Shown here in pieces: positions 42,801 through 64,000 of a stretch of DNA of 64,000 nt; position 1 is the stretch's first letter, and the number at the start of each line of letters is the position of its first letter. Location: assembly GCF_039654945.1 (NCBI RefSeq), contig NW_027361765.1:17298001-17362000 (forward strand). The letters run 5' to 3'. The notes below the pieces were generated by a model. It was not told the origin of the DNA, did no database searches, and saw nothing but the letters and a program-made list of their open reading frames with translations. Source of the DNA: Dendrobates tinctorius. Lineage: Eukaryota. Both the position numbers and the translations under genes were made by a program.

Positions 42801-45800
42801 TCATTAACTAGATGTGCCTGAAAGTGAACCCCCCCAACCTACCCTCAGTTTTTGTTAGAACTAATTTTTATGATTTCAATGTTGATTGTCGTATATAACT
42901 TTGATTTTTTTTTTTCCTCATTTAGTACAACAAATTTAAGTGCCGGATCTTAAATGAAAAAGTCGATACGCCAACCACTACTGTATACAGGTAGGTGAAA
43001 TCACATGGTTACTGGGTCCACAGACCTTGCAGCTGCCAGGAGCTCTGTATAGACACTGGTTGTATTCCAACTATTCACAGTATAGCAAGTTAATAGTACT
43101 GTAGGGGAATCCATGTGTAGCGCAAAAGATGGCCAGATCAAAAAAGGCTGTAATAACCAATGCCCCTGTGTGGATGTGATTATTAGCAGATATGACATGT
43201 GTGTTTGAAATGTATGAAAGCTATAGAGATTATTCATTTTGTAACCTCCCATGCCGGAAGATGTTTTCCTTTCCGATAAGCTTTTTGATTCATGGTTTCA
43301 TTGAATTAAGATCAGAGATTCTTCTGCTAAATTGAGTTATTGCATCCCCTATGAATTTAGGGTTTTATTTCACGTAAATACAAAAAAATTACTGCTTTCT
43401 TCTAACTTTTAAAGTGAACATGTCAGTTGATCCATGCAGTCTGCATTCACATCAGAGAGACGCTTCTGTGTTTTAAACACCTGTTTAAGGGCTCGCGCAG
43501 ACTGGTTTCAGTCAAAACATTGGCTTGCTTCCGGACCAATGTTATTGAATGAGGCGGTGCACATGTCTGAATTTTTCCTGAGAAAAATCTCAGCATGCAC
43601 TATTTGCGTCTGATAATCGGACGGCACCTCACCTATTTATGATGGCGTCTGTGCAACACACCGGATTACTGTTACTGTAAGACGTTAAGCAAGTTGAAGG
43701 TTAAATAATCTCTGAAAGGCCTAAAGGTAAAAATGACACATTTTTCTTTGTATAATAGGCAAAAAATATATACCATATACTCGAATATAAGCAGAGTTTT
43801 TCAGCACATTTTTTTGTGCTGAAAACTCCATCCCCCCCCCCCCCCCCCCCCTCGGCTTATACTCGGGTGAGGGTCCCACAAGATGGAGGCGGAGCAGCGG
43901 GTCACAGGAGGCAGGAGCTGACTTATGCGGCTAAAGCCTGTGCCTGCTGCTAAAAGAGAAATGAAGATTCACTGCTCGCAGTGAATCTTCATTTCCCTGT
44001 AATAGCGGGCACAGTGGTCGCAGCCGCCGGCTCCTGCAGCTGCCAGGTGATCACGTGTGCCCGCTACTTAAGAGAAAGGAAGTGAATATTCATTCCCTTT
44101 ACTAGTGGCACTTGTGAAAGCCCAGCCACTGCAGGAAGCCTGCGGCTGACACTGTGCGCACTACTAAATAGCAATGAATTCTTGCTGCTTTTCACGCACA
44201 TAGTCCCGGCGTAGGTAGCACTGAGTTTTCCGGCAGCAGTCCTCTTCATGTAAGCAGCACATGTCGTCACTGCCGTGCACTGCTTACAAGCATATATCGG
44301 CTTGTTGCACTGGAACAAGACGCAGTGATTGAGCTTAGGGACGGTAAGTTGGATGGTTTATTTCTCCTTCGCCTCATTGGGGGACACAGGTACTGTGGGA
44401 CACATGTACTGTGGGTGTATGCTACTGCTGCCTGGAGGCTGACACTAAGTGAAAAAAGAGGTTAGCTCCTCCTCCGCCCTATACACCCTCGCCCCGATTG
44501 CGGGCGGAAACCAGTTCATGCTTGGTGTCCGTTGGAGGCACACACGTCTGTTTTTTCTCCAGATTTAATTTTTTTTTCTTTTTCCTTTTTTCTATGGAGA
44601 TGAGACAGGGGCGACGGACCCTAGTGAAAGGGTCTGATCTCCCCAAACCAACAGCGGGCGAGTGTTGCCTCCACGTATCCTCTCCCGCAACGTGGGACAA
44701 GTCTGGTCTTTTTTCCCAGACTTTTTTAATTTTTACCTTCCATGAAGATAAGACAGGGGCAACGGACCCTATCGAAAGGGTGAACACCAGGGTGAACACC
44801 AAGGTACCCATGTTTGTCGCTCGGTCCCGGGACCCACAGCCAGTCACTGTGGATGCGTTGGTTCTGCCATAGAACCAGTTTCGCCTCCCATACTTATTCC
44901 CCTCGCTGCCACTACTTCCGAGGGTCATCAAGAAGATCAAAACAGAAAGGGTTCCAGCGATTCTGCTGGCCCCAGACTGGCCCCATCGAGCATGGTACGC
45001 AGATCTAGTGCAGCTGCTCGCCGACGTTCCTTGGCGACTGCCAGAGCGCCCAGATCTACTGTCCCAAGACCCGATCTTCCACCCGAGCTCAGGGGCCCTG
45101 TGTTTAACGGCATTGCCGTTGAATCTTGAATTCTGACCCAGGCGGGGTCTGGACGCGAGGTGGTTGCTACAATGGTTATTGTCTTGCCTTCATTTTGTCC
45201 AGCGCCGGTACACCACGTGGAAAAAGCTCTTCACACGTTGGACCTGGTAAGAGCCCTCAGGAGGTATGTGTCACGGACGGCACCCTTTCGGCAGACAGAC
45301 GCTGTTCCTGCTCCCTGAGGGGCGCAGGAAAGGACTCGCGGCCTCAAAATCGACCATAGCCAGGTGCATTCATCTGACCATTCAGGAGTCCTACCGCATC
45401 AGGGGTGCGCCGGTTCCAGCAGGGATCAGAGCGCACTCTACTCGGGCAGTGGGCGCCTCTTGAGTGCTTCGGCACCAGGCTTTGATGGAACAGGGTTGCA
45501 AGGCAGCAACCTGGTCCAGCCTGCACACGTTTGCCAAACATTACAATATCCATACTCAGGCTTCAGCGGATGCGAGCCTAGGTAAAAGGATTCTCCAAGC
45601 AGCGGTGGCGCACCTTTAGACAGGAGGTGCATGTAGCTTGGATCAGTGAGTCAACTTCCCACCCAGGGACTGCTTTAGGACGTCCCACAGTACCTTTGTC
45701 CCCCAATGAGGCGAAGGAGAAACATGGATTTTTGTGATAAGCTCACCGTAAAATCCTTTTCTCCGAGACGCTCATTGGGGGACACATCACCCACCCTGAT

Positions 45801-48800
45801 AGCCAATTGGCTCTTGTTTGTTCAATTAATGTGCATTTTCGTTGATATTAGGGTGGTTCTTTTCTAGACATATTGTTACCTGCATTAAGGCTGTTTTTTG
45901 TTGTTCTCCTACTGCTTTTGCACTAAACTGGTTTCCGCCCGCAATCGGGGTGAGGGTGTATACGGCGGAGGAGGCGCTAACCTCTTTTTTTTCACTTAGT
46001 GTCATCCTCCAGGCGGCAGTAGCATACACCTATAGTACCTGTGTCCCACAGTACCTGTGTCCCCCAATGAGCGTCTCGGAGAAAAGGATTTTATGGCGAG
46101 TTTATCACAAAAATCCATGTTTTATTTTATTTATTTTTTTCTGGTGGGGGCCATACAGACCAGGATGTGGATGAGGATGCCATGCAGACCAGGATGGGGA
46201 TGTGGAGGCCATGCAGACCAGGATGGGGATGTGGAGGCCATGCAGACCAGGATGGGGATGTGGAGGCCATGCAGACCAGGATGGGGATGAGGAGGCCATG
46301 CAGACCAGGATGGGGATGAGGAGGCCATGCAGACCAGGATGGGGATGAGGAGGCCATGCAGACCAGGATGGTGATGAGGAGGCCATGCAGAGACCCAGGC
46401 TTATGCTCAAGTCAATAAGTTTTCCCTGTAGTACCCCCTTTTTGCAAGTATCACGGCTTCTAAACTTTTTTTATGCAGCCAGACAAGTCTTTCAACTCTT
46501 CTTTGAGGGATTTTCAATCATTCTTCCTTGGAAAATTCTTCCAGTTCTGTGAGATTCCGGAGTCGTCTAACATGACTGCTATTTTGAGGTCTAGCCACAG
46601 ATTTTCAATGATGTCCAGATCAGGAAACTGTGAGGTCCACTGTAAAACCTTAAGCTTATGCCTTTTTTAGGTAGTCTATTGTGGATTTTGACGTGTTTAG
46701 GATCATTATCCATTTGTAGAAGCCATCCTCTTTTCAACTTCATGTTTTTTACAGATGAATTTTATTTGGCTTCCAGAACTTATGTTGAGCTCCACTGTTC
46801 CTGTTAACTGCCATTTCTTAATTACATTTCAAACTGCTGAAAGGGCAACTTGAAAATGCTTTGCTATCTTCTGATAACCTCCATCTGCTTTGGCGGCCTC
46901 GACTATTTTCAAGACCTAACTCTAAACAAGCTAATTAGGGTCTAAAACCTTGGCCAAAGTTATATGAGCACACAGATCTCCAAGGGAGCTCAGACTTTTG
47001 AATCACCCATTTTCCTTATTGTAAGTTTTAAAATGTAAAAAATGACAAATATGTAATTTATTTCTTTATTTATTTTTTGCCTAAAATACAATGGAAACGT
47101 GTCATCTCTAACTTTAGGCCTTTAAGACGTCATTTCATTTTCAACTTAACTGTTCACAATAACCGTAACCTTGACCAGGGGTGCCCAGACTTTTACATCA
47201 CNNNNNNNNNNNNNNNNNNNNNNNNNNNNNNNNNNNNNNNNNNNNNNNNNNNNNNNNNNNNNNNNNNNNNNNNNNNNNNNNNNNNNNNNNNNNNNNNNNN
47301 NNNNNNNNNNNNNNNNNNNNNNNNNNNNNNGGAAAAAAAGTATTTAGTCAGTCAGCAATAGTGCAAGTTTCACCACTTAAAAAGATGAGAGGCGTCTGTA
47401 ATTTACATCATAGGTAGACCTCAACTATGGGAGACAAACTGAGAAAAAAAAATCCAGAAAATCACATTGTCTGTTTGTTTTTCATTTTATTTGCATATTA
47501 TGGTGGAAAATAAGTATTTGGTCAGAAACAAAATTTCATCTCAATACTTTGTGATATATCCTTTGTTGGCAATGACAGAGGTCAAACGTTTTCTGTAAGT
47601 CTTCACAAGGTTGCCACACACTGTTGTTGGTATGTTGGCCCATTCCTCCATGCAGATCTCCTCTAGAGCAGTGATGTTTTTGGCTTTTCGCTTGGCAACA
47701 CGGACTTTCAACTCCCTCCAAAGGTTTTTTATAGGGTTGAGATCTGGAGACTGGCTAGGCCACTCCAGGACCTTGAAATGCTTCTTACGAAGCCACTCCT
47801 TTGTTGCCCTGGCGGTGTGCTTTGGATCATTGTCATGTTGAAAGACCCAGCCACGTTTCAGCTTCAATGCCCTTGCTGATGGAAGGAGGTTTGCACTCAA
47901 AATCTCACGATACATGGCCCCATTCATTCTTTCATGTACCCGGATCAGTCGTCCTGGCCCCTTTGCAGAGAAACAGCCCCAAAGCATGATGTTTCCACCA
48001 CCATGCTTTACAGTAGGTATGGTGTTTGATGGATGCAACTCAGTATTCTTTTTCCTCCAAACACGACAAGTTGTGTTTCTACCAAACAGTTCCAGTTTGG
48101 TTTCATCAGACCATAGGACATTCTCCCAAAACTCCTCTGGATCATCCAAATGCTCTCTAGCAAACTTCAGACGGGCCCGGACATGTACAGGCTTAAGCAG
48201 TGGGACACGTCTGGCACTGCAGGATCTGAGTCCATGGTGGCGTAGTGTGTTACTTATGGTAGGCCTTGTTACATTGGTCCCAGCTCTCTGCAGTTCATTC
48301 ACTAGGTCCCCCGCGTGGTTCTGGGATTTTTGCTCACCGTTCTTGTGATCATTCTGACCCCACGGGGTGGGATTTTGCGTGGAGCACCAGATCGAGGGAG
48401 ATTATCAGTGGTCTTGTATGTCTTCCATTTTCTAATTATTGCTCCCACAGTTGATTTCTTCACTCCAAGCTGGTTGGCTATTGCAGATTCAGTCTTCCCA
48501 GCCTGGTGCAGGGCTACAATTTTGTTTCTGGTGTCCTTTGACAGCTCTTTGGTCTTCACCATAGTGGAGTTTGGAGTCAGACTGTTTGAGGGTGTGCACA
48601 GGTGTCTTTTTATACTGATAACAAGTTTAAACAGGTGCCATTACTACAGGTAATGAGTGGAGGAAAGAGGAGACACTTATAGAAGAAGTTACAGGTCTGT
48701 GAGAGCCAGAAATCTTGATTGCTTGTTTCTGACCAAATACTTATTTTCCACCATAATATGCAAATAAAATGAAAAAAAAAACAGACAATGTGATTTTCTG

Positions 48801-51800
48801 GATTTTTTTTTCTCAGTTTGTCTCCCATAGTTGAGGTCTACCTATGATGTAAATTACAGACGCCTCTCATCTTTTTAAGTGGTGGAACTTGCACTATTGC
48901 TGACTGACTAAATACTTTTTTTCCCCACTGTATATATATATATATAGATATATATAGATATATATATTGATATATGATCTATATATTATTCTCCACATCC
49001 TAGAAAACAAATTTCACTCTGATCAGAGTGTAAAGTGTATTGTAAGCTCTTACTAGCAGGGTCGTCATTATTTTTGCTTTAATTATTGTATTATCTTTAA
49101 CATAGTTACTTATGACTTGTATATGAACTGTCGAATTGTAAAGTGCTGCCGAATGTGTTGTCGCTATATATATGATCATTATTATTATTACCCTAGTCGG
49201 ACCGGTTTTCTCAAATGGAGAACATATGGTCATCTGTATCTTCCCTATAGGAAACCTGTCAGCTGATACATGCTTGCCCAATTCATGAGCATAAATTCTG
49301 GTGTCCCAGCCGCACTGGAGACTAGTCAGACAGCAGGTCTCTGGTGGCTTCTTCCCACCCACTGCACTGGATTGACAGGTCTCTGCCTACATGTGCATAT
49401 AGAAAGAGACCTGTCAATCCAGGGCAGCAGGCGAGGAGAAAATGCCGGGGACCCGCCTGTCCGACTAGTCTCCAGTGCAGCTCAGTCCCCAGCAGCTATA
49501 AAATTATATTTGTGTCTGACACGCTGCATCGTGTCAAGATACCTGGCTTAGGCTACTTTCACACTAGCGTTTTTTTGTGCTGCGTGCGCAGTCCAAACGC
49601 ATGCAGAAAACGCATCAAGCGTTTTGCATGCGTTTGCTTATTTTATGCGCATGCGTTTTAACCAGTTTGTTGCCATGTGTAGTCTTAAAACGCATGTGTC
49701 TTTAAACGCTGACATGCGCATGTCCATGCGCATGCCTGCGTTCCCATAGACTATAATGTGATTTTTATCGGTCGTCCATGACAGCACCACCTGAGAGAGG
49801 GGATCCGCCCTTCAGGAACAGGAAACCTACAGATACAAAAGGGCGGCACCTCTTCCACGCATCAGTTGGTTTCCTGTTCCTAGAGGACGGGACTTCCTTC
49901 AGATCGTCCATCATGGAGTCGCCGAGGGATTCCCAGGCCGGCTGACCGACCCAGGTAGCGAGGGGGTCTCCTACCTCAGTCAAGCTCGGGTCCCTGGAAG
50001 CGCCACGGTGGGGCCGGGTAGGTCACCACGATGGTGGTGAGAGCAGGTGGAGCCAGGGTTCCGGTGGACAGCCGCCTCCATATTGCCACACCAGGAGGTA
50101 TGTATGTCCCGGGCCCCTCCTGGTGCGCTCTCCCCGTGGTCCGCTCTCTCTCTCTTCCGGCCGGGCCGGCGGTGGCGCCCGGTCGGCGGGCGCAGGTCGG
50201 CGCGGGTGGGGGCTGTGGCCTTGCCTGAGCCGGAGGCGCCGTGTCGGCTCCTTCTGCGCGTCCCTGCAGGCCTCAGACGGGTGGTGGAAGTGACGCGGCG
50301 GAGGGGACGGGGACGCCGAAACCGGAAGTCGGGTGCCGGCCGGCTTCCGGCGCGCGCCGCGTGTGCACTGCGGTACTGGGCGGTGGCCGGGGGGGGGGAT
50401 GACCGGAGCTTGCGGGGGGAGGGTCGTGGGGGGGTCCCGGGTGGGAGGTGCGCGCCAGAACCCTGCTGACCCGGACAAGGAGGCCTTAAAAGGCAGGAGG
50501 TGACGCTGCTGGGGTGTTTCTGAAGGCCCAGCGATGGATACGACAGAAGCCCCCATAGAGCAGCTGGACGAGGTGCAGGAGCACCCACAGAAACAGGCCA
50601 CAGTGAAACCACATGCGAGTGGCCAGCAGAAGAAGAAACGGACAGGCGGACAAAGCCACAGAAGTTCCTCCAGGCTAAAGGACCCTCCTGCCTCCCTCCG
50701 TGATCCGGTACCTGCCTCATCTGCATGGGTAAGAGATCTCCGTGAATGTACCCTGATGCAGTGTTCCCTTATGTTTTTTTGCAGGGGAAGAAAGCTACGG
50801 GAAAACAGAAGCACAGGGAATGTGCCCTCTGTAGTTCCCCCCTACCAGATGACCACCCTAAAAAATTATGCCAGCCATGCATACGACAGACGGTAGGGGT
50901 TAATAAAGACAGGGAGTCCAGGGGTAGATTGTCAGGCCCTTATACTCTCCCCCGTTTATGCAGGTAGCGGAAGAGACACCTGACTTTACTTCAAGCCTGA
51001 GAGAGATGATCAGGGCAGAAATGAAAGTCTTACCTCAAGGTGAACCTTCTAGGAGAAGAGAGGCTAGTGGTTTAGGCTCGGAGGCCTCAGTCACTCCTAG
51101 GAAAGGTGACAACTCCTCGGACTCCTCGGCCTCCTCGTACCCTGATGCAGTGTTCCCTTATGTTTTTTTCGCAGGGGAGGAAAGCTACGGGAAAACAGAA
51201 GCACAGGGAATGTGCTCTCTGTAGTTGCCCCTTGCCGGACGGCCACCCTAAAAAATTGTGTCAGCCATGCGTGAGACAAACGGTAGGGGTGGAAGGGGAC
51301 GTTGGCCCTGGGGTAGATTGACAGGCCCTTACACTCTCCCCGTCCATACAGGTAGCGGAAGAAACGCCGGACTTCACCACAAGCCTGAGGGACATAATCA
51401 GGACAGAGATAAAGGCCCTATCTAAAAAGGATTCCTCTAGGGGAAGAGAATGTAGTTTCTCAGGTTGAGTCCTCGACCGCCCTAAGGATCGATGACTCTT
51501 CAGATTCCTCGGCCTCCACTTCGTCTTCTTCGGAGGAAGACTCGAGTCGATTCTGCTTCCCCTTAGACCAGATGGATAAGCTAGTTAAAGCAATAAGGTC
51601 CACCATGGGGGTAGCAGACACAAAACCGGAACTTTCAGCTCAGGACGTGATGTTCGGGGGTCTAGATCCCAGGAAGCGGAAGGCCTTTCCATTAAATGAT
51701 AAGGTCCAGAGCCTAATAGATAGGGAATGGAAGAGACCTGAAAAAAGAGGCTCCTTACCTCCGGCCTTCAAGCGGAGGTACCCGTTTGACGACCCAGTGG

Positions 51801-54800
51801 TAAACGGATGGGATAAGGCCCCTAAGCTGGACGCGGCAGTAGCCAAAGCCTCCAAAAAATCTTCCATTCCCTTTGACGACATGGCCTCCTTAAAAGACCC
51901 GCTAGATAAGAAAGCAGACTCCTTTTTGAAGGGAACTTGGGAGATGTCAGCAGGTGCTCTAAGACCAGCGATAGCTGCCACATGTACGGCCAGATCCATG
52001 ATGGTCTGGCTAGACCAATTGGATTCCCAACTAAAGGACGGAGTCTCAAGAGCTTCTATCCGGAAAACGCTGCCAATCATCCAAAGTGCGGCAGCTTTTT
52101 TGGCTGATGCTTCAGCAGACTCTGCGAGGATGGCAGCCAGAACTGCGAGTTTATCTAACGCAGCTCGAAGGGCCCTTTGGTTAAATTGCTGGCCGGGAGA
52201 TATCCAGGCCAGATCACGACTCTGCTCCATTCCATGTGAGGGTGAATATCTGTTTGTCCCAGTCTTGGATGAACTCTTAGAGAAAGCCGGGGATGATAAA
52301 AAGAAGTTCCCCAGTCTACCGAATCCTTCTTACAGACGTCCCTTTACCAGGAAAGGCTATTTCCGTAGAAGGCCGTCCAGAGATCAGGGCAGATGGGAGG
52401 ACAAAAGAAGGAGAGGTACAGGCCCAGTGTTCCATCCTCAGGTGGCTGGCCTACATCTGACGGCGTGGAGTTTGAACGGACACTGCTGAGAGAAAAAGGC
52501 TTCTCCCCAGACCTGATTAACACCCTACTTAAAAGTAGAAAAGTCATCACTACCAAAATCTATGTCAGAATTTGGAATAAATTCCTGCACAACTCTGGAG
52601 TGGTCGCTGGCGCTTCAGCACCTGTAAACCAAATCTTAGAGTTTCTTCAGAAAGGTCTGGATATGGGGCTCTCCACTAGTACCCTTAAAGTACAAGTATC
52701 AGCCTTGGGGGCCCTCTTTAGCTGCAACATCGCGGGTAATTACTGGATCAGTAGATTCATTAAGGCAGCAGGTAGATTCAGGCCAATAGTGAAGGATAGA
52801 TTCATGCCATGGGACCTGAACCTAGTCCTCACGGCTATGACAGAAGCCCCATTCGAACCTATCTCATCAGCTTCCATAAAGAACCTGTCCCTCAAAGTAG
52901 CCTTCCTGGTAGCTCTAACCTCAGCTCGTAGGGTAAGCGACATCCAGGCATTATCTAGACGTCCTCCTTATATACAGATCAAGGACGATAGGGTAATACT
53001 CAGACCTGATTCGGCGTATTTACCTAAGGTAGTTTCCAGCTTTCATAGGACACAGGAGATAGTCCTTCCATCTTTCCTCCCTAATCCAGCTAATGAGAAG
53101 GAAGAGAAACTTCACACCTTGGATGTTAGGAAATGCCTCATAGAATATCTGGCAGTTACCGATCCCTGGAAAAAAGATAATGCCCTGTTTGTCTCCCATC
53201 AAGGCCCTAGGAAAGGTTGTAGAGCGTCAAAAAGTACACTAGCCAGGTGGGTTAGAGAAGCGATCTCAATAGCATACACCTCAAAAGGCAGGTCGCCACC
53301 CCGGAAGCTGAGGGCGCATTCCACCAGAGCCATGGCGACCTCGTGGGCCGAAAGATCAGAAGTGTCCATTGACCAGATATGTAAGGCGGCTACTTGGTCC
53401 TCTCCGAGCACCTTTTATAGTCATTATAGGCTAGACTTGGGTGCTTCCACAGACCTCTCTTTTGGTATAAGGGTACTGCAGGCTGTAGTCCCTCCCTAAA
53501 TAGTTTTACTCTCTGTAATTCTCTCAGGTGGTGCTGTGATGGACGACCGATAAAGTCTTAGTTACTCACCGGTTAACAGTGTTTTTCGGAGTCCATGACA
53601 GCACCCGTATATTCCCTCCCTTTAGTTTAAATTTGGGAGTGCACTTCTTCCTCTCGTATGTACACTGGTAAGGAATAGATGTGTAAAAGTACTGTATATA
53701 AATTTTGCTATTAACCATTGTGGTCCTCTTGTGCTCTGTAATCCAACTGATGCGTGGGAGAGGTGCCGCCCTTTTGTATCTGTAGGTTTCCTGTTCCTGA
53801 AGGGGCGGATCCCCTCTCTCAGGTGGTGCTGTCATGGACTCCGAAAAACACCGTTAACCGGTGAGTAACTAAGACTTTTTGCACATTCCGTGCGCTTTTG
53901 TGCGCACGCATTTTTTGACACAGGTTGGGCGCACAAAAAATGCAACAGGGTGCGTCCGGCGCGCCTAGGCGCACACTGGAAAAACGCATGCGCACAAAAA
54001 CGCTTACAAACGCTAGACCATGCGCACCCATGTTAAGCATAGGGGCGCATTGCACGTGTACGATGCGCTGCACTAAAAAACGCTAGTGTGAAACCAGCCT
54101 TAGATCATACAACCAGTGCCTGATACATGCTGCCCAAACTATGGACAAATTGTATCAGCTGACAGGTTCCCTTTAATGCTGAATTGCGGCTTCAGATTAA
54201 AAAAAATAGCTGAAAGCATGACTATCCAAGAGGTGACTGGACCAAGAGGAAGGTACTCGCTGGCTTCTCCCCATTATGTGTCTGTATGCGGAGAGACCTG
54301 CTAGTCTAGCTGAGTGGACGTCCCACGGTGCAGCCAGCAAGATTCAGGGAAAAGGTTCTCGATTTTTTTTTCTTTTTTCTTTTTACTAGAAAATAATCTT
54401 TTATATCAAATTTTAAGAGTGCAGCTTTATTTTGTTAAACACTATGGTATGCAGACATTGAAAATGTGATATAGGAATTGTATTACACCTATAGAAAATA
54501 AGTAAAAATGAAGGTACTTGGTGCATAAATTGGCCAATTCATGTGAGCCCAACAGCCAGCGAATAGGCAACCTTATCAGCTGGGACCCCAAACTTAGCAT
54601 GATGCCTCTCCCTGGCCAAAAGCCTACAATGACATGGGCAGGCAGGATCAAGCTCTGTTTAAACCTGCCATAGGATGATGGGTGGAGTGCTCAGTCAGAA
54701 GGCGTGTTACAAATGTCAAAATACTGACCTGACCGTCACTGCCAAACAAAGACAAATGTTCACATGTGCAAGCTACGAGAGCCACTCTATTACACATGTA

Positions 54801-56864
54801 TTGGCCAACTTATGCTCGAAGTACCTTAATTTTTACTTATTTTCTATAACATAATGTAATTCTCATTTCATGTATTTAATGTCTGCATCCTATAGCGTTT
54901 AACAGCGTGCAGAATTAATTTGTTAGTTACATATAGAATGGCTCTCTTGGTTTGCACCTGTTCACATTTGACTTTCTGTTTGGAATTGATGGTCAGTCTT
55001 TTGATATTATATAAAATTTTGTCATCACATGCACAGTAGTTTTCTCTACTTTACTGTTATCTCTCACTATGAAATCCCTAATTCCCTGTGTCCTCACTTA
55101 GGTGTGGTCCTCTTATTGACCTGTGTAGAGGTCCCCATGTGCGGCACACAGGGAAGATTAAAGCCTTAAAAATATACAAGGTAAATATTGGGGCTTGGTA
55201 TAGGTTTTTACATTGTATTTTCAGAATATATATATATATATACAGTCATATGTAAAAGTTTGGGCACCCCTATTAATGTTAACCTTTTTTCTTTATAACA
55301 ATTTTGGTTTTTGCAACAGCTATTTCAGTTTCATATATCTAATAACTGATGGACTCAGTTATATTTCTGGATTCAAATGAGGTTTATTGTACTAACAGAA
55401 AATGTGCAATCTGCATTTAAACAAAATTTGACCAGTGCAAAAGTATGGGCACCCTTATCATTTTCTTGATTTGAACACTCCTAACTACTTTTTACTGACT
55501 TCCTGAAGCACTAAATTGGTTTTGTAACCTCATTGAGCTTTGAACTTCATAGCCAGGTGTATCAAATCATGAGAAAAGGTATTTAAAGTGGCCACTTGCA
55601 AGTAGTTCTCCTATTTGATTCTCCTATGAAGAGTGGCATCATGGGCTCCTCAAAACAACTCTCAAATGATCTGAAAACAAAGATTATTCAACATAGCTTT
55701 TCAGGGGAAGGATACAAAAAGTTGTCTCAGAGATTTAACCTGTCAGTTTCCACTGTGAGGAACATAGTAAGGAAATGGAAGAACACCGGTACAGTTCTTG
55801 TTAAGCCCAGAAGTGGCAGGCCAAGAAAAATATCAGAAAGGCAGAGAAGAAGAATGGTGAGAACAGTCAAGGACAATCCACAGACCACCTCCAAAGACGT
55901 GCAGCATCATCTTGCTGCAGATGGTGTCACTGTGCATCGGTCAACAATACAGCGCACTTTGCACAAGGAGAAGCTGTATGGGAGAGTGATGAGAAAGAAG
56001 CCGTTTCTGCAAGCACGCCACAAACAGAGTCGCCTGAGGTATGCAAAAGCACATTTGGACAAGCCAGTTAGATTTTGGAAGAAGGTCCTGTGAACTGATG
56101 AAACAAAGATTGAGTTGTTTGGTCATACAAAAAGGCGTTATGCATGCGCTGTATTGTTGACCGATGCACAGTGACACCATCTGCAGCAAGATGATGCTGC
56201 AGGTCTTTGGAGGTGGTCTGTGGATTGTCCTTGACTGTTCTCACCATTCTTCTTCTCTGCCTTTCTGATATTTTTCTTGGCCTGCCACTTCTGGGCTTAA
56301 CAAGAACTGTACCTGTGTTCTTCCATTTCCTTACTATGTTCCTCACAGTGGAAACTGACAGGTTAAATCTCTGAGACAACTTTTTGTATCCTTCCCCTGA
56401 AAAGCTATGTTGAATAATCTTTGTTTTCAGATCATTTGAGAGTTGTTTTGAGGAGCCCATGATGCCACTCTTCATAGGAGAATCAAATAGGAGAACTACT
56501 TGCAAGTGGCCACCTTAAATACCTTTTCTCATGATTTGATACACCTGGCTATGAAGTTCAAAGCTCAATGAGGTTACAAAACCAATTTAGTGCTTCAGGA
56601 AGACAGTAAAAAGTAGTTAGGAGTGTTCAAATCAAGAAAATGATAAGGGTGCCCATACTTTTGCACCGGTCAAATTTTGTTTAAATGCAGATTGCACATT
56701 TTCTGTTAGTACAATAAACCTCATTTGAATCCAGAAATATAACTGAGTCCATCAGTTATTAGATATATGAAACTGAAATAGCTGTTGCAAAAACCAAAAT
56801 TGTTATAAAGAAAAAAGGTTAACATTAATAGGGGTGCCCAAACTTTTACATATGACTGTGTATG

Positions 56865-56929
<65 letters not shown>

Positions 56930-58989
56930 AAAATTTTCTTATATCAATCATATTTTTCTCTTGCCTTTCTGCTGCTTATAGTGTTATTGCTAATACCATT
57001 CATCTGCCTGATTAGTCTGGAATTGATGTAATCCCTCTCGCCCCCCCCTGCTGTGAGTCAACACGGACAGGAATAATGTGCTTTCTGATCTATGCCAGAA
57101 GCATCAGAAAACCCCGCTGTGTGGATGTGTCCATAGCCATAAAGGTGGTTATCCGGAGCCGTTAATGTCAGTGCCGATGACGAGATCGGCAGGTATCATA
57201 TACATGCCCTAAACGGCGGGTCCTAACGTCCTCAGCACTGCTCACTACCAATGTGGACGGCACTGGATAACCCCTTTAACTTTATAGTGACCTCTCTAGT
57301 GTCCATACATTGAAGTACTCCTGCATTGATCAGGTTGATTGATAAGAGCAGACTCTGATCTGAATATCTTCTCATATATTATGTGATTGTTTTTCATTCC
57401 CATCTTACTATAATCTTGTAGAATTCTTCTACGTATTGGGAAGGGAAAGCGGACATGGAAACATTGCAGAGAATATATGGGATTTCCTTTCCTGATAATA
57501 AGCTAATGAAGGAGTGGGAGAAATTCCAGGAAGAAGCGAAAAACCGAGATCATAGGAAGATTGGAAAGGTTTGTATCTCTCTCATTATGAAGTGGGAAGT
57601 CAGTGATCACCTTGTTAACGTGCTGGGTATTTGTAGCCTGTTCTATGAATTAGTCTGTAAATAAATGGTAAAATATATCAGATTTACTGCAAAAAAAAAA
57701 CCCCCGTATATAAAACTTACATGCACATTGAGCAGTTTCCTAATTTCTATCTATTACACAAATGTCTCCTGTTTTTGAGGGGGGCTATGTGAGTATTAGG
57801 TACAGCTTACAGGTACAATAACATTTCTTTTTATACATAGTAATACAGACCAAAAGATGCAGGTTTTTACATAAGCTGTTCCTGAAATGACCGTTGGTTA
57901 TTAAATCTTCTAATGCTTAATTTTCCTTTGCTTCCAGGACCAAGAGCTGTTCTTCTTCCATGAGCTGAGTCCGGGGAGCTGCTTCTTTTTACCTCGGGGG
58001 GCTTATATCTATAACACGCTGATTGACTTTATCAAGGTTAGAGCAGCATTTGGAGTTAGTGTAACTTTTATTTTCTGTAGCAAGAAGTATGAAGGATATA
58101 CGCACCTTTTGTATATGTGACATCTGATAAATGTGCAAAGATGTCGGTGATGGACGTACAAGGACTAAAACCCCACCTGTTGTAGTGATGGTCCTTCCTT
58201 TTGTATGTGGCACTGGCATCGGCAGAATTAAGAGATATGAAAATATTTCAAGCCAATTTCAAGCCAGCCATTGTGATTAGGAGGCAGGGGTCTGTGCTTA
58301 TTGATATGGTGCAGACTTATTTTTTTTTTTCAGATCAGACTATACCATGAATGAAGATTTCAGCCTAGTGTATTCAGAACACACTTTCACATAGTACTAA
58401 TACCTCCACAAATAAAGATTTGATCACGGCTCGCTCCAGTGTTTGCTGTGCAAGCCGGAGGTCACTTTTCAGTGCTAGTCTATGAGAGGCAGAACAAGGT
58501 TCTCATACACTTCCATTGAAAGCTTGTGAACATTACATCTGACTTCTGGTCAGTCAGAAGCTGCAGTCGTAGAATAGTGGTTCAGGACAGGAGGGATGCC
58601 GGGAAGGACTGAAGACTGCAATGGGTAAGTATAAGACCTTAGATTAGTAACACCATTCCAGCTCTGAAATATAAAAACCGCTGGAGTGGTGCTTTAAGTG
58701 AAGTACTAGTGAAATGTTCACATTACTTCTTCAGCTCTTAGCTTTCATGTCAGTAACAATTCTGTGCCATGATCTTTTCTGAGGACATGCCCATTAATGG
58801 CATAAATGGACTGCTGTTACAGGAGGAATACCAGTTGAGACATTTTACAGAAGTAGCAACACCTAACATCTACAATAGCAAGCTATGGGAAGCGTCTGGC
58901 CACTGGCAGCATTACAGTGAGAACATGTTCTCCTTTGAGGTTGAAAAAGAAATGTTTGCACTGAAACCTATGAACTGTCCTGGACATTG
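15795..58989 (+). CDS. tars3: Threonyl-tRNA synthetase, cytoplasmic-type, TARS3/TARSL2-like; multi-exon, incomplete at both ends of the window
   Basis: Exons 21819-22009, 22638-22761, 25791-25912, 26102-26219, 42926-42990, 55102-55180, 57422-57568, 57938-58036, 58823-58989 have AG/GT ends and compatible phases and join into one frame (TGS, editing domain, start of catalytic core). [41 protein letters not shown] and [12 protein letters not shown] match TARS3 rather than TARS1 as I recall the human sequences. The span includes three less certain upstream exons. Confidence 0.88.
17584..17668 (+). CDS. Candidate tars3 exon ([28 protein letters not shown]-)
   Basis: Strong pyrimidine tract tttcttcctttctag, G|gtaagt donor, 85 nt, phase 0/1, open frame; no homology recognised. 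Confidence 0.5.
18646..18692 (+). CDS. Candidate tars3 micro-exon ([16 protein letters not shown])
   Basis: ttctttgttgctcag acceptor, gtgagt donor, 47 nt, phase 1/0, complements the 17584 exon exactly. Confidence 0.55.
21046..21481. mobile_element. Unclassified insertion with a 10-bp TSD and an internal 41-bp inverted repeat (Penelope-like geometry)
   Basis: tgttaagacg at 21036-21045 and 21482-21491; 21126-21166 inverted at 21442-21482. Confidence 0.5.
21819..22009 (+). CDS. tars3: tars3 exon [12 protein letters not shown]...[23 protein letters not shown] (TGS start)
   Basis: tttag/gtaact, 191 nt, ThrRS homology. Confidence 0.93.
22638..22761 (+). CDS. tars3: tars3 exon [41 protein letters not shown]
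   Basis: tttcag/gtaagt, 124 nt, TGS motif. Confidence 0.95.
23704..24726 (+). pseudogene. Tc1 transposase (340 codons) with one premature stop at 24472-24474
   Basis: [25 protein letters not shown] in one frame; TGG>TGA relative to the sister copy. Confidence 0.95.
24781..25282. mobile_element. Harbinger-type fold-back MITE, near-perfect 502-bp palindrome
   Basis: GGCTGGTTTCACATT termini, symmetric to a ~10-nt loop near 25032, flanked TAA/TTA. Confidence 0.92.
25791..25912 (+). CDS. tars3: tars3 exon [12 protein letters not shown]...[17 protein letters not shown]
   Basis: ctgcag/gtaaat, 122 nt, HSSAH editing motif. Confidence 0.96.
26102..26219 (+). CDS. tars3: tars3 exon [39 protein letters not shown]
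   Basis: tatag/gtaaag, 118 nt. Confidence 0.95.
26959..27696. mobile_element. Solo LTR (738 bp)
   Basis: TG...CA ends, 6-bp TSD cctgcc, interrupts the L2 3' UTR. Confidence 0.75.
29170..29952 (+). pseudogene. hAT transposase C-terminal remnant with hATC dimerisation domain
   Basis: AAVYVDP and [17 protein letters not shown] motifs; stop and frameshift. Confidence 0.85.
30015..30221. other. N gap (207 nt)
   Basis: Run of n. Confidence 0.99.
32183..32430 (+). mobile_element. tRNA-derived SINE with L2-like tail (last bases at ~33710-33727)
   Basis: A box TGGCTCAGTGG, B box GGTTCCAATCC, central GCGTGGGTTTCCTCCGGG, tail AAAGCGCTGTGGAA..GGCGCTATATA. Confidence 0.9.
32431..33709. mobile_element. 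Tc1/mariner (pogo-like) non-autonomous element inserted in the SINE tail
   Basis: TA|CCGTATATACTCG ... CGAGTATATACGC|TA; internal inverted repeat ~32535-32970; ~60-bp tandem units 33040-33490. Confidence 0.82.
34572..34728 (+). mobile_element. Penelope-like pLTR fragment inserted in the piggyBac-like element
   Basis: Hammerhead motif followed by ATTAAA and a short tail, the usual pLTR order. Confidence 0.65.
34575..34613 (+). ncRNA. Minimal type I hammerhead ribozyme motif
   Basis: TGC-CTGATGA-A-GAGAC-ctgagta-GTCTC-GAAA-GC-TT-GCA: canonical core, 5-bp stem II, palindromic AAGCTT in place of stem III, 3-bp stem I. Confidence 0.78.
37109..37419. mobile_element. Harbinger-type MITE
   Basis: GGGTGTGTGCACACGCTGCGG / CCGCAGCGTGTGCACACACCC; TSD not clean. 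Confidence 0.75.
38271..41595 (-). mobile_element. CR1 LINE, 5'-truncated within the endonuclease, frameshifted ORF2
   Basis: [62 protein letters not shown]; (ATGTTACT)-like 3' tail. Confidence 0.93.
39905..40839. mobile_element. Harbinger-type non-autonomous element inserted in CR1
   Basis: TTA|GGCTAAGTGCACAC...GTGTGAACTCAGCC|TTA; homologous to 1279-2123. Confidence 0.9.
41609..42552. repeat. 65-bp minisatellite, ~14-15 units with short deletion variants
   Basis: Unit aatctgtgctgcactttatgtacatgctcagtagtgaccagtgctgtggagtcatagctgagatg. Confidence 0.95.
42638..42866. repeat. Imperfect inverted repeat (~85-bp arms), MITE-like
   Basis: gaatttaggtgcagatttaaaaa / tttttaaatctgcacctaaattc with matching outer segments. 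Confidence 0.75.
42926..42990 (+). CDS. tars3: tars3 exon [22 protein letters not shown]
   Basis: tttag/gtaggt, 65 nt. Confidence 0.95.
44361..46122 (+). mobile_element. DIRS1-like element, heavily deleted, with ITRs and ICR
   Basis: TTTCTCCTTCGCCTCATTGGGGGACACAGG left end, inverted right ITR plus extension, ICR ~45680-45790; pol C-terminal and YR remnants ([10 protein letters not shown]). Confidence 0.88.
46147..46392. repeat. 29-bp minisatellite, ~8.5 units
   Basis: ggccatgcagaccaggatggggatg(t/a)gga. Confidence 0.93.
46426..47201 (-). mobile_element. Degraded, internally deleted Tc1-like fragment
   Basis: Minus-strand [13 protein letters not shown]-like remnant near 46590-46630; GGGGTGCCCAGACTTTT terminus running into the gap. 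Confidence 0.6.
47202..47330. other. N gap (129 nt)
   Basis: Run of n. Confidence 0.99.
47331..48930 (-). mobile_element. Tc1-like transposon, near-identical to 23339-25447 but inverted; one tip lies in the gap
   Basis: Same TIR and transposase; ends CCCCACTG|TA. Confidence 0.96.
47541..48562 (-). pseudogene. Tc1 transposase with a 1-bp loss in a G run (~48310) and catalytic E>K ([10 protein letters not shown])
   Basis: ORFs 48302-48562 and 47541-48302 join if one base is restored. Confidence 0.92.
49040..49190 (+). mobile_element. L2/SINE 3' tail fragment
   Basis: TTGTAAGCTC...TGTAAAGTGCTGCCGAA...CGCTATATA...(ATT)n. Confidence 0.65.
50534..52489 (+). pseudogene. DIRS ORF1/gag-like (CxxC-x12-CxxC finger and LAP2alpha-like region), predicted spliced, with an internal duplication and one frameshift (~51466)
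   Basis: Blocks 50534-50728, 50785-50892, 50964-; [33 protein letters not shown] motifs in 51572-52489. Confidence 0.8.
52393..53499 (+). CDS. DIRS tyrosine recombinase, uninterrupted ORF (368 aa)
   Basis: [15 protein letters not shown] (R), HTLDV, AHSTR (HxxR), ATW, FYSHY (Y). Confidence 0.9.
   Translation: MGGQKKERYRPSVPSSGGWPTSDGVEFERTLLREKGFSPDLINTLLKSRKVITTKIYVRIWNKFLHNSGVVAGASAPVNQILEFLQKGLDMGLSTSTLKVQVSALGALFSCNIAGNYWISRFIKAAGRFRPIVKDRFMPWDLNLVLTAMTEAPFEPISSASIKNLSLKVAFLVALTSARRVSDIQALSRRPPYIQIKDDRVILRPDSAYLPKVVSSFHRTQEIVLPSFLPNPANEKEEKLHTLDVRKCLIEYLAVTDPWKKDNALFVSHQGPRKGCRASKSTLARWVREAISIAYTSKGRSPPRKLRAHSTRAMATSWAERSEVSIDQICKAATWSSPSTFYSHYRLDLGASTDLSFGIRVLQAVVPP
55102..55180 (+). 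CDS. tars3: tars3 exon [26 protein letters not shown]
   Basis: cttag/gtaaat, 79 nt, DLCRGPH motif. Confidence 0.96.
55641..56093 (+). pseudogene. Truncated Tc1 transposase, DNA-binding region only (MGSSKQLS...KKVL*)
   Basis: Paired-like HTH, GRPRK; TGA where VLWTDETK is expected. Confidence 0.88.
56068..56460 (-). pseudogene. Mirror copy of the truncated Tc1 DNA-binding region
   Basis: Same N-terminus as far as STIQR, then reads into the antisense spacer. Confidence 0.85.
56859..56923. repeat. (TA)n microsatellite
   Basis: Direct. Confidence 0.95.
57422..57568 (+). CDS. tars3: tars3 exon [24 protein letters not shown]...RDHRKIGK
   Basis: ttgtag/gtttgt, 147 nt. Confidence 0.96.
57938..58036 (+). 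CDS. tars3: tars3 exon [33 protein letters not shown]
   Basis: ttccag/gttaga, 99 nt. Confidence 0.96.
58823..58989 (+). CDS. tars3: tars3 exon [11 protein letters not shown]...[10 protein letters not shown](C)
   Basis: ttacag/gtgagt, 167 nt, SGHW and KPMNCP motifs. Confidence 0.96.
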
Positions 58990-60720
58990 GTGAGTTTTTA
59001 ATGTTCCTGTTCCTTTTATGTCAATACAAAATCAAAGTTTCCATTTGTCTGTTTAGATCACACAGTATTTACCTGTTTGTGTGTAGCACGCATGTAGATC
59101 TACATGTGAAGTGAATTGTGGCACAGGTCGAACAAGATACAGATAAATGGACACAACACATACTCTGTAACCACTATCGCTATGTATCCCCCCCTCTATG
59201 CCCAAAGTCGGGGCTGGGTACCATCTGCTAGCACACAGGAGCTGCCGCCTGCACAGCACACACGTTCGCGGGCGCTGCCGCCTGCACAGCACGCCCAACT
59301 CTTGCACTAGTACTTTACTGCTCTTCAGTCACACAGTCTGACAAACAGCACTGCTACACATACATTGACACTGGTCTGTGCTCAGTACACTATATCCTCC
59401 TCTCTAACCAGTACAGTGAGAGGAAATTCACCATTTACATCATGTGATCTTGTTACAATAGCAATTGCTGGCGGCTTACTGGAGTACTGGGTGCTACAGC
59501 TTTAGCCCATAAGTTCCAGAACAAAGGAAAATATTAACTGATAACAGTAGCATTCAATACATGCTAGTCCTTAACCATTCCCACTTGGTAGGACACGGAA
59601 CCACAGTCTGTGCGCATGTCCACCTGGGCCATGAGATTGTTCTTGGCATCTCCATAAATAAACCTTACCCCCATCCCCTTCCCAGGGACTAGCACGAGTG
59701 GAAGTGTTTCCCTTACCAGGGTCACCAAACTACTTGAGTCGTGAACTTCCATTACTAGGACACGGTTCAGTTAGCTGGTATATGTGAGGAACTGCACCGC
59801 CGGTGGGGTAAGCAAAGTAGGAGGAGTGTTGGCCAATGCTGCTGTCCCAATTGGTTCTGGGACTTAATTACACCATCTCTCTGTACCGATATGTTATATG
59901 AACCTCGCTGCCAGTGTTGCAGACCCCAATTTTTCTTCGCACAAATCTATTACAGGGACTGCTCTCCACACTCCTTCGAGCTGCACCAGCAGCTATGAAA
60001 CCGCAGCAATATCTCCTTCTGGCAGGACAGCTCCTCTATACTTTCAGAGAGTGTAATGCTGCTGCTGCCTGTAGCCTGGACATTCAGTCTTTACACTGCA
60101 ATCTCCTGTGCTCTCTGGAACTTTACACCCGCATTTCATTCACCAGTTGTAGGGATTTACTTTCTCACGTAGGAATTGGGTAGCGTTCACACAAGCAGTT
60201 CAGTTTGCTCCAAACTGGTGCAGTTTTATTGCTTTCATAAAACTCCCAAGAGATTCAAAACCAAAAATAGCCTTTTCTGGGCACAATGGTATCACAGCAA
60301 ATAACCAGTTAATTTACCAAGCACATACATCAGTGTGGGCTCACCCCAACAAACAGTCCTTTCTTCCAGAGCAAAATTTACATCCCACCAATCTCGTTCT
60401 CCTCTTCAGCCTGTGCCCCAGCGCCAAACCGCAGTATTCAACTTCAGGCACATTTCACTCTGAATAGGCAGCAACCTCCATACTGTTCCATGCAGCTCCA
60501 ACACACACACTGCTCAGCCTTCCCAGCTGACCTATGAAGTCCCCACCTAGAGAGAGACCCTGCGACATCTCGCTGAGCTACAGCTGACATTTTCGCTGGT
60601 AACTCATGAACAGCACACTTGATTCTGCTCCATCCAGCAGACTTCAATTAATATAGACTTGGCACACACCAAAAAGATTCTGATGCAGAAAGGTGGTTTT
60701 AATGGATTGCAGTACATACA

Positions 60721-60755
60721 TACAGACGTTTCGGTCTAGGACCTTCATCAATGTA
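60721..60755 (-). ncRNA. Minimal type I hammerhead motif (variant core UUGAUGA)
   Basis: TACA-TTGATGA-A-GGTC-cta-GACC-GAAA-CG-TC-TGTA. Confidence 0.68.
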
Positions 60756-61664
60756 CTGTGAAATATAAATAAAGATAACAAAAATAAAAATTGACAAAGA
60801 AAGTATATACAACAAATTACATGGGTTTTCAAAATGAAAAATGGATAACATGCTGAGACATCGTTCACATTATAGCACAGAATAAATGTTGGCACAGGGA
60901 ATAGCAAGCAATCATGAAGAACAAGATCAAGAGAAGGAGGCACATACCAATAAGTTGTACTGTGAGCTCTTAGTGACTGGGCTTTAAGGGAGACACCTAT
61001 GGGAAAATGAAGCTGCTATAATGGCTGCTATGGTGGCCAGAAGTAAAGAGTAAAGGGATACACAAGCTGCACCACATCCATTACATACCAACACTGCAAG
61101 GAGGCACCTGCGGCCGTCCCACTGTGGGAGGAGAGGAAATGCTAAATAACTTCATGACAAGAGGCATAAAGACTGTCAGGTTGTGCATAGAGAGATCATT
61201 GGATCTTACCGTGGTTCTATATAACAAGTGGACGCAGTATCCACCGCGAATCCAAGGGTGCTGTGATAAGAGAGAGTGACAGGGTTTTATAGTCCTGGGT
61301 GAGATGTAGCAGGTGCCTCCTTGCAGTGTTGGTATGTAATGGATGTGGTGCAGCTTGTGTATCCCTTTACTCTTTACTTCTGGCCACCATAGCAGCCATT
61401 ATAGCAGCTTCATTTTCCCATAGGTGTCTCCCTTAAAGCCCAGTCACGAAGAGCTCACAGTACAACTTATTGGTATGTGCCTCCTTCTCTTGATCTTGTT
61501 CTTCATGATTGCTTGCTATTCCCTGTGCCATCATTTATTCTGTGCTATAATGTGAACGATGTCTCAGCATGTTATCCATTTTTCATTTTGAAAACCCATG
61601 TAATTTGTTGTATATACTTTCTTTGTCAATTTTTATTTTTGTTATCTTTATTTATATTTCACAG

Positions 61665-61699
61665 TACATTGATGAAGGTCCTTGACCGAAACGTCTGTA
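61665..61699 (+). ncRNA. Minimal type I hammerhead motif (variant core UUGAUGA)
   Basis: TACA-TTGATGA-A-GGTC-ctt-GACC-GAAA-CG-TC-TGTA; GUC cleavage triplet. Confidence 0.68.
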
Positions 61700-62008
61700 T
61701 GTATGTACTGCAATCCATTAAAACCACCTTTCTGCATCAGAATCTTTTTGGTGTGTGCCAAGTCTATATTAATTGAAGTTCACGGATTGGGATCCTACTT
61801 GTGCACCACCTCCGGTAACCAGGGTTGTGCCAACGGTTTTGTTCCATCCAGCAGACTGACACACCTAGTGAACACAGACCCTGGTTCTAGTAAAAAGTTA
61901 GCCAGGTGTATTGAATCAAGACCTGCAGCGATAGGATTTATTCCAGTCCTGCCTGGCTTTGCTACAACGGCAAGTTGTCTTTATTTTACAATACATGTGT
62001 TCATTCAT

Positions 62009-64000
62009 TTTCTCCTTCGTCTCATTGGGGGACACAGGAACCTGTGGGTGTATGCTACCGCTATCTGGAGGCTGACACTAAGTAAACAACACAAGGTTAG
62101 CTCCTCCCCCGCCGTATACAGCCTCGCCCTGCTTGCGGGCGGAAACTAGTTTTTTGCTTAGTGTCTATGGAGGCACACGTCTGGTCTTTTTCTCCAGACC
62201 TTCTTTGACTTTTTTCTATGAAGATTAGACAGGGGCAATGGATCCTATTGAAAGGGTCCGATTTCCCCAAACCATCAACGGGCGAGCACGTGCGAGTGGC
62301 CCTCCACATAACCTCTCCCGCGACGTGGGACATGATGCCCGACCTGGTCCTGTCCATCCCTAGGTAATGAAACCATGGGCTGCGCAGAGGCACAAGATGG
62401 TCCGAACCGCCCCCACTGCTCCACCAACGCTTGACGGCGGTGCTACAAGTCGGCGGACGGTCCCTCTCAGCCCTGGAAGCTGGATGGAGTTAGGGGGCCT
62501 GCACCGTCCTGGATTTCCCCCCACCCACCCCTATTTCCCTCTACCTGTCGGAGAAGACGTCCTGGATGGAGGTACAGACAGAGTGGGGAGGGCTCTGGAG
62601 GTAGCGCCAGTGGAGCTCTGCATGCAGTCGTCGGGGTAGCAGAAGGCACTTGGACTGCAGGGACAGCGGTGTGCTCCGGGAAGGGTGCGCTCCCCTCCCC
62701 CGTCCTTTCTCCCCTCCCCTGTCCTTTCTCCCCATAGCGGCGGGGGTAGTGACCCAGTGCCATCCGCGTGCTGGCAGCCTACCGACCGCCGCCCCCGGCG
62801 GACGGATGCTGTAAATTTAGCCCACGGTTTCGGCCGGGGGTAGGCCGCGGCGGAAGTCCTGCCCTCCCCATGCGATTTCACTTCCAGCGGCCCGCCCTCC
62901 GGAGCCTGGGCGGGCGCTGGATAAATTGAGACCCCGGCTTCATGTCGGGGTAGGCCGCGACCGGGAAGAGAGGTCGGCCTGCCCCACAGCGTTACAGCAA
63001 GCAGGACCCATGATTGGTGGCACGTGCGGGGACGCAGGACCGGGTAAGTGCGGTCTGTCTGTAGGAAGCACGCTATAGACTCTCAAGGGGTGCTCCCCCC
63101 CCCCCCCCCCCGCAAGTCTCCAGTAGGGCAGTACAGACACCTGGCAGAGACAATATGGCTGGGAAAGGGAAGACGCACACGTTCCTCTACGCTGCATGCA
63201 TCTCCTGTAGGGCTTCGTTTCCGAGGGCGCAGAGCAGCAAATTGTGTGAAGCCTGCGACTCCGAACCCGCCCGGGAGCCCTCCCCTGCAACCGAGTCCAA
63301 CGATCCAAATTCTCTGGAATGGGCTCTATCACTATCGCAGTCTATGGCATCGCTTACAAAGGCGATCGAGTCTCTTCGCGCTCCAGATAGGGGCAGGGAT
63401 GGTGGCTCGCTTATCTGGGAAGGATCCTCCACCTCACAAGAGCCTCCGGCCTGCAGGGGCCGCTCTCATGCCAGGCAGGTGCGAAGGAGGCGAACCCACA
63501 CGGAATCTCCCGGCCCATCCGGTGCATCGGCATCCGTGAGTTCAGCATCACGCTCTCCTTCACCAGTGGTCAGGAGCGGGCAGAGTTCAGATTGTGACTC
63601 AAACGAGCCACTGGACTTAGATACCCTGGGGTGTCGGGAAACAGTGGACAGCCTCATTGATGCTGTTAATCAGACCCTGGGGCTGGAGGATGATGTCACC
63701 CTGGCCTCAAGCCATATCCTTTAAGCGGGCTAGGCGACCGCATAGAGTGTTTGGCACTCATCCAGAGTTTGAAGACTTAGTGCAGCGTCACAGAGAACGG
63801 CTGGATAGGCGTTTCTCGGGCCAGAAGACAATAGAGGCAAGATATCCTTTTGCCCTGCAACTCCATAAGAAATTGGAGGAAGGAATCCCCAGTGGTGGAT
63901 CCACCAGTGTCACGCTTGGCCTCGAAGACCTTATTGTCTGTACCTAGTGGCTCGTCCATTAAGGACCCCACTGATCGGCTCATAGAGAGTTTGGCTCGCT
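62009..64000 (+). mobile_element. DIRS1-like element (family of 44361), 5' part, runs off the window
   Basis: TTTCTCCTTCGTCTCATTGGGGGACACAGG left ITR; GC-rich leader; gag from 63155. Confidence 0.87.
63155..64000 (+). pseudogene. DIRS gag-like ORF1, frameshifted
   Basis: CISC-x12-CEAC finger, ARYPF, VDPPVSRL, IKDPTDR spread over different frames. Confidence 0.8.

Follow-up and report, generated by a model that had tools for sequence, protein, structure and literature searches.

Evidence for spliceosomal introns in the gag gene of a DIRS1-like retrotransposon of Dendrobates tinctorius and for their retention by most genomic copies

Retroelements are expected to lose introns, and introns have been reported in some fungal recombinase retroelements. 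A stretch of 64,000 nucleotides of the Dendrobates tinctorius genome, referred to here as the window, raises the question of whether a vertebrate DIRS element can carry spliceosomal introns in its gag gene (ORF1) from copy to copy. According to the original prediction, gag starts at ATG 50534 and is divided by two short GT..AG stretches into blocks lying in three different frames, one of them a 108-nt exon that encodes a zinc finger-like motif; all of these features are present in the sequence. The element resides within an intron of the host threonyl-tRNA synthetase gene, on the same strand, and is flanked by TTT at either end. It is non-autonomous, the RT/RNase H/methyltransferase region being deleted, and gag is consequently fused straight to the recombinase frame at 52422/52423. 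The features outside gag are as follows.

49764..53878, forward strand: DIRS1-like element, delimited by its sequence, inverted repeats I8 and I11, and full-length relatives
49774..49872, forward strand: left inverted terminal repeat, whose partner is 53740-53848
50098..50103, forward strand: donor-like GAG|GTATGT in the leader
50486..50491, forward strand: TATA-like TTAAAA downstream of a GC-rich stretch, candidate internal promoter
52423..53499, forward strand: 3' part of the tyrosine recombinase frame (PF00589, E 2e-5, under the curated cut-off)
53521..53605, forward strand: internal complementary region, matching both termini by complementarity, with overlap AAA at 53552-53554
near 25800-25925, 55100-55180 and 57422-57568, same strand as the element: exons of the host threonyl-tRNA synthetase gene

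The element splits a MITE-like palindromic repeat, the halves of which lie at about 49550-49763 and 53879-54100. The introns of the host gene also carry a deleted DIRS copy (44361-46071), a Tc1-like transposon (47331-48924), a Tc1-derived long palindrome (55226-56875) and another long palindrome (60641-61779). A search of Rfam over 49700-54000 returned nothing matching up to E 1.

The structural traits of DIRS1-like elements are all present, namely inverted terminal repeats, an internal complementary region with a 3-nt junction, and TTT ends. In a natural full-length relative (L093), ORF1 contains the LAP2alpha domain (PF11560, E 3e-14), which has been linked to DIRS gag in the available part of PMC4495291, and the following frame matches RVT_1 (3e-17) and RT_RNaseH (1e-5), with Dam at 0.009, under its cut-off. 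The tyrosine recombinase matched PF00589 at E 2e-5 and 7e-5, both under the curated cut-off, and contains the HSTR motif; its frame of 554 aa overlaps the RT frame. The element is thus DIRS1-like. As far as the accessible text of PMC9210276 and PMC3266345 describes them, Xenopus elements of the DIRS-37_XT type share the inverted terminal repeats, internal complementary region and TTT ends, and a LAP2alpha gag, RT/RNase H/methyltransferase and an overlapping recombinase frame are likewise common to frog DIRS1-like elements. The same sources present the frog DIRS ORF1 as one frame, whereas here it consists of three exons (two in distant families). An uninterrupted ORF1 is a descriptive rather than a defining trait, and it is absent from this family: only 2 of 103 scored intron-bearing copies are open when unspliced, which bears out the view that the split frames are a family trait and not damage to this copy.

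The layout of gag in the window copy is given below.

50534..50707, forward strand: gag exon 1, 174 nt, 58 codons, ending R-D-P; end corrected here
50708..50784, forward strand: intron 1, 77 nt, CCG|GTACCT donor, GT..AG, phase 0, defined by precise-loss copies
50727..50757, forward strand: conserved intronic core, beginning at a GTAAGA site that is unused in every intron-less copy found
50751-50757, forward strand: candidate branch site CCCTGAT in intron 1, by motif
50785..50892, forward strand: gag exon 2, 108 nt, CxxC-x12-CxxC finger, subfamily A sequence
50893..50963, forward strand: intron 2, 71 nt, GT..AG, phase 0, precisely lost at 36 places and skipped in one contig
50964..51136, forward strand: start of exon 3 of subfamily A, where the foreign insert ends
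51137..51351, forward strand: subfamily B resumes, with the 3' half of intron 1 (to 51174), exon 2 (51175-51282) and intron 2 (51283-51351)
51352..52422, forward strand: gag exon 3 with the LAP2alpha-domain region; in the window copy the frame breaks near 51470

The second finger exon calls for comment, as it had been described as a diverged duplicate. Its acceptor at 51174, its exon (51175-51282) and its 69-nt second intron with a stop at 51319 are all where they were placed. The duplication itself, however, is not a feature of the family, being absent from all 29 subfamily A loci. Sliding scores identify the window copy as a subfamily B element holding an insert of about 389 nt of subfamily A (about 50748-51136), with its left boundary in the near-identical intron 1, and positions 51137-51700 are 98-99% identical to 39 other B copies. 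An insert of this kind looks like a template switch during copying. The intron length of 69 nt holds for the window copy but is private to a few copies, the subfamily B intron 2 being 70 nt in 26/29. Each subfamily otherwise shows the same gag layout, as seen in the 29 copies closest to the first block (A) and the 29 closest to the second (B). Twelve A copies (L078-L089) lie on one contig at multiples of about 25 kb and are probably a tandem segmental array.

A first look for the gag-start stretch gave more than 2,000 candidates in the 6.36 Gb genome, and a word-index protein search with 110 residues gave one match. Between subfamilies, dN/dS in the spliced frame was 0.07-0.08 for exon 2 and 0.09-0.20 for the opening 60 nt of exon 3; the other frames gave 0.84-3.9, the family pairs in this comparison not being independent. 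The exon frame restored by splicing is thus shown, at the level of sequence, to be under purifying selection. The exon 2 finger yielded only a weak DZR_2 match (E 0.012). The splice sites are conserved as well. Acceptor 1 reads CAG or TAG in 29/29 A, 29/29 B and 30/30 C copies, and the GT of donor 2 is kept in 29/29, 26/29 and 30/30, respectively, family C consisting of 30 loci picked by exon-2 similarity. The GT/AG ends are preserved around an intron-2 interior that has been rewritten: in family C, intron 2 ranges from 57 to 101 nt, has an identity of 0.53-0.54 to its counterparts and is precisely absent from 4/30 copies (two of them identical duplicates). The pattern is that of U2-type introns, with GT donor, pyrimidine tract and YAG acceptor conserved, and CTGAT and CTTAC branch-like motifs were noted by eye. 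Whereas the interior of intron 2 drifts, that of intron 1 does not, and its identity remains 0.78-0.79 between families whose synonymous sites are saturated.

Copies that lack an intron exactly provided a further line of evidence. Searching with the finger exon led to long open frames and to three copies exactly without intron 2, and one match lacked the GT..AG stretch that begins 21 nt upstream of the 50729-type donor. Genome-wide junction patterns then revealed eight copies without intron 1 in the close subfamilies (control 0), all joined at the 50708-type donor, and two more in distant family E, against 104 intron-bearing copies there (control 0), both also at the upstream donor. Intron 2 was precisely absent from 36 places (12 plus 24, less one shared, plus L170; controls 0), of which 16 were viewed in context and the others are defined by the junction pattern. 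The intronless copies that had been proposed as a check are accordingly present, ten for intron 1 and 36 for intron 2. Families C and D yielded no copy devoid of intron 1. Intron-bearing matches numbered 1,343 for intron 1 (control 0) and 959 for intron 2 (control 91), giving loss rates of 0.6% for intron 1 (8 in about 1,350) and 1.4% for intron 2 (12 in about 880, from the matched pattern pair). Some 98-99% of genomic copies thus retain the introns, and approximately 0.6-2% lack one of them exactly. The loss is nearly always of a single intron: 7/8 intron-1-less copies keep intron 2, and 12/12 intron-2-less copies keep intron 1. A sole copy without both introns was seen (L117), with its intron-2 joint 3 nt short of precise.

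The ends of the introns share 2 nt for intron 1 and, for intron 2, 5 nt in A/B and 3 nt in family C, which is too short to account for the recurrence of precise losses. We infer that the intron-less copies derive from spliced RNA and that the host spliceosome thus does remove these introns. In a tree of 118 rows the losses were scattered over the subfamilies, with 7 label changes per 7 copies and 14 per 15, counts that overstate independence because young branches are poorly resolved, so that the true events are fewer; the tree leaves out the window copy, L022, the nine loci that had been retrieved in duplicate, eleven copies of the tandem array, and 18 copies whose boundaries could not be scored (L117 and L161 included). 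Moreover, for 16/22 intron-less copies an intron-bearing copy is at least as close a neighbour as any copy that shares the loss. Several independent loss events have clearly occurred. The intron-less copies are otherwise ordinary elements, as the left-repeat motif lies upstream in 5/8 (intron 1) and 10/12 (intron 2) and two of them are full length with RT and recombinase frames intact. Conversely, both introns are present in seven full-length loci whose gag, RT and recombinase frames are all intact. Taken together, the precise intron-less copies, the selection on the exon frame and the conserved GT/AG ends uphold the central claim that spliceosomal introns interrupt this DIRS gag and stay in place in most copies, and the introns are almost certainly real.

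The same copies place the splice sites to the base. Intron 2 spans 50893-50963, as predicted, and acceptor 1 also stands, whereas the donor proposed for intron 1 at 50729 does not: the real donor is at 50708, 21 nt upstream. The intron is hence 77 nt long, and the length of 56 nt, about which the prediction itself had expressed reservations, resulted from a wrong 5' end. None of the ten intron-1-less copies used donor 50729, even though the loss patterns permitted gaps of 0-24 and 0-30 nt and thus covered it too. Exon 1, counted as far as the upstream donor, has a length divisible by three in 27/27 A, 24/25 B and 17/18 D copies scored. The GTAAGA site follows that donor by 21 nt in A/B and by 22 nt in 19/24 C and 18/18 D copies, so that its use as a donor would shift the frame; the 50729 equivalent is accordingly out of frame in those 19/24 C and 18/18 D copies scored, and a stop follows it in family E. 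In 13/18 copies tabulated, splicing from the GTRAG/GTAAGA site would lead to a frameshift or a stop. Of the 9 positions of the U1 consensus, the used donor matches only 4-6.

The unused site opens the core at 50727..50757, which gave 1,343 matches in the genome (control 0) and is likely a regulatory element, judging from its conservation. A hairpin or dimerisation signal in intron 1 was also considered but found no support: the same stem was predicted in the eight sequences folded, but z-scores ranged from +0.7 to -1.9 and a compensatory change was found in 0/11 pairs. Distant families, retrieved using the finger exons of public proteins and sharing about 50% protein identity, lack intron 2 and have an intron-1-like site at the same place, with a weak GTAY donor, GTRAG 22-27 nt 3' of it, and an acceptor that adjoins the finger exon. 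In family E the internal site, at 108 nt from the acceptor, is far enough away to be usable. For families F and G, motifs suggest the intron. The public gene model P0002 is identical to locus L211 on either side of the intron and skips it at the upstream donor; the junction residues also match in models P0003, P0044, P0162 and P0163, which come from another frog genus, genomic structure having been seen for P0002 alone. Such models may be partly ab initio, and the spliced form is already among automated models. The predicted start of protein P0167 reads as though a pyrimidine tract had been translated, with a final Q immediately ahead of the finger exon, which hints at the same intron in another organism.

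None of the sequencing runs listed is recorded as RNA; four contig sets from one study, which may be RNA-derived, were compared with the locus. One contig skips exactly 50893-50963, at a depth of 3.66 and with 30 nt on its short side, which is consistent with splicing, but an intron-less genomic copy could equally be its source. In the same four sets a joint over intron 1 is absent from every contig, and several contigs read straight through the introns. The most upstream gag-side contigs among the matches listed begin at 50479 and 50494, a weak indication of a start close to the TATA-like box, which lies about 45 nt ahead of the ATG; an A/T-rich box occupies a similar place in subfamilies A, C, D and family E. 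No contig covers 50160-50435, which we did not count as evidence. For the donor-like site in the leader at 50098, two pattern searches for a splice partner gave one match each, neither of them a GT..AG joint to exon 2.

How, then, could introns that the spliceosome removes persist through copying? The genomic counts suggest that the RNA is probably sorted into an unspliced template and a spliced protein message. Full-length RNA from the left repeat would be taken for copying before splicing and would not give full-length Gag, although it could still yield shorter Gag from downstream ATGs. Gag would be made from a spliced message without the left repeat, perhaps initiated at an internal promoter near 50490, a separate start being suggested by the TATA-like box. 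In the full-length relatives (L091-L110) the RT frame follows the gag stop, deleted from the window copy, in frame, and 15/19 loci have TGA CTAG at that stop, which we take to be a read-through context; Gag-Pol may thus arise by UGA-CUAG read-through of the spliced message. Gag and Gag-Pol would act in trans, with which the RT-less window copy is in keeping. Intron-less copies would be reverse transcripts of occasionally spliced RNA, or recombinants with spliced message. As the most speculative step, the intron-1 core with its strong-looking unused donor might repress splicing on the template RNA or mark the RNA for copying, which would explain why intron-less copies have founded no subfamilies. 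Neutral introns would disappear under a steady loss of 1-2%; that these have persisted implies a cis-acting function, for which the conserved core is the candidate. It is conceivable, though doubtful, that splice-gated expression is a general strategy of a large clade of frog, and perhaps vertebrate, DIRS elements, in which the genomic RNA is neither spliced nor translated, spliced message supplies all Gag and Gag-Pol, and the intron-1 core acts as a cis switch or packaging mark, hence the survival of the introns.

Other readings have to be weighed against this sorting of RNA. That the two stretches are frameshift sites or products of decay, and the intron-less copies microhomology deletions, is highly improbable. 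The 5-nt end homology of intron 2 in A/B and the subfamily B intron 1, which at 78 nt is open in frame, would suit such a reading, but it is largely refuted: each of the nine possible pairings of intron lengths modulo 3 is represented in a set of 108 copies, a spread incompatible with any fixed frameshift; the same GT..AG ends are used repeatedly by deletions, at a homology of 2-3 nt; and partial remnants of intron 2 under 57 nt were not seen. Alternatively, there may be one transcript class with poor splice sites, Gag coming mostly from unspliced RNA via downstream starts, the spliced finger isoform being minor and retention passive. Most contigs over the region do keep the introns, the used donor fits the U1 consensus poorly, and the open frame after intron 2 comprises 391 aa including the LAP2alpha domain. 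We nevertheless consider passive retention quite improbable, as the strong selection on exon 2 indicates that the spliced product matters, the intron-1 core is more conserved than synonymous sites, and passive introns would erode at 1-2% loss per copy, whereas the intron-1-like site persists at about 50% protein identity.

It is also unlikely that the introns are efficiently spliced while the template is something other than spliceable sense RNA, such as antisense from the right repeat or DNA amplified as such, with losses arising by conversion from message cDNA. Losses of single introns are also compatible with short conversion tracts, and exchange between subfamilies does occur, as in the window copy. 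Against it stands Dictyostelium DIRS-1, in which, according to the available text of PMC7192593, a marker intron was removed from the element's own transcript prior to copying. In favour of the sorting of RNA, the same text reports that unspliced cDNA was obtained when such an intron was placed close to the 5' end, an outcome that its authors ascribed to competition between splicing and retrotransposition factors, and that the DIRS-1 proteins work in trans. Also at odds with a template other than sense RNA, most intron-less copies have the left-repeat motif and, in the two full-length cases, the intact RT and recombinase frames of ordinary elements.

Sorting into two RNAs recalls retroviruses, in which unspliced RNA serves as genome and gag-pol message and the balance of spliced and unspliced RNA is controlled, among other means, by decoy 5' sites such as the NRS of Rous sarcoma virus. 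The retrovirus-like partition originally proposed thus applies loosely as regards two RNAs, and a strong-looking donor left unused is a further likeness; its polarity, however, is reversed, as the full gag frame exists here only after splicing, and there is no envelope gene. In Ty1/copia elements with spliced gag (Arabidopsis EVD, Drosophila copia), a spliced message likewise produces Gag while the dominant intron-retaining RNA is copied, and U1 binding within the element has a second role, as far as the accessible text of PMC5580714 goes. Their intron lies around the protease and splicing truncates an open gag-pol, whereas here small introns within the first 430 nt of gag interrupt a frame that splicing creates, so that splicing would be required for Gag-Pol also. 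The present element has inverted repeats and a recombinase, with no LTRs or integrase. Penelope-like elements, an unrelated class and the known exception to intron loss, likewise carry a short intron (75 nt in Penelope) from copy to copy, close to an internal promoter, for a reason given as unknown in the available part of 10.1101/2021.04.23.441226; there, the introns of Penelope and Chlamys-3 are in the 5' UTR, whereas those described here are coding and have measurable loss rates. The Penelope-like hallmarks (GIY-YIG endonuclease or telomere-type RT, pseudo-LTR, 5' UTR intron) were not found, and the three frames of L093 gave no such Pfam match.

In the literature searched, which did not extend to two key reviews and Repbase, we found no account of natural introns in DIRS gag, vertebrates included. 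The words 'intron' and 'splic' occur 0 times in the main texts of PMC9210276 and PMC3266345 in the form available, the supplements of the former giving ORF details per family that may bear on novelty, and neither occurs in the accessible text of the fungal survey PMC3783388. Natural DIRS gag introns are not stated in the available portions of PMC9341512, PMC13465315, PMC12477816, PMC9940879, PMC8547959 (with 'intron' twice) and PMC5745447. ORF1 of such DIRS families would be mis-described if read as one frame. The system allows retention to be measured straight from a genome, with rare escapes that locate the splice sites exactly, and its 30-nt conserved core offers a concrete target for how template RNA is shielded from the spliceosome. 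It is also relevant to how vertebrate DIRS elements replicate, a cycle about which little is known; according to the accessible text of PMC4495291, these elements gave rise to the mammalian LAP2alpha exons.

A second DIRS family is represented in the window at 62009-64000 and by loci L131-L160, and its finger is already in frame with gag. A search for the pre-ATG donor/acceptor junction of this family returned no intron-less copy. In about 25/30 of its copies, by eye, GTRAGT is followed by a C-rich tract and mostly TAGCAG just before the ATG, an arrangement that would be compatible with a possible 5' UTR intron.
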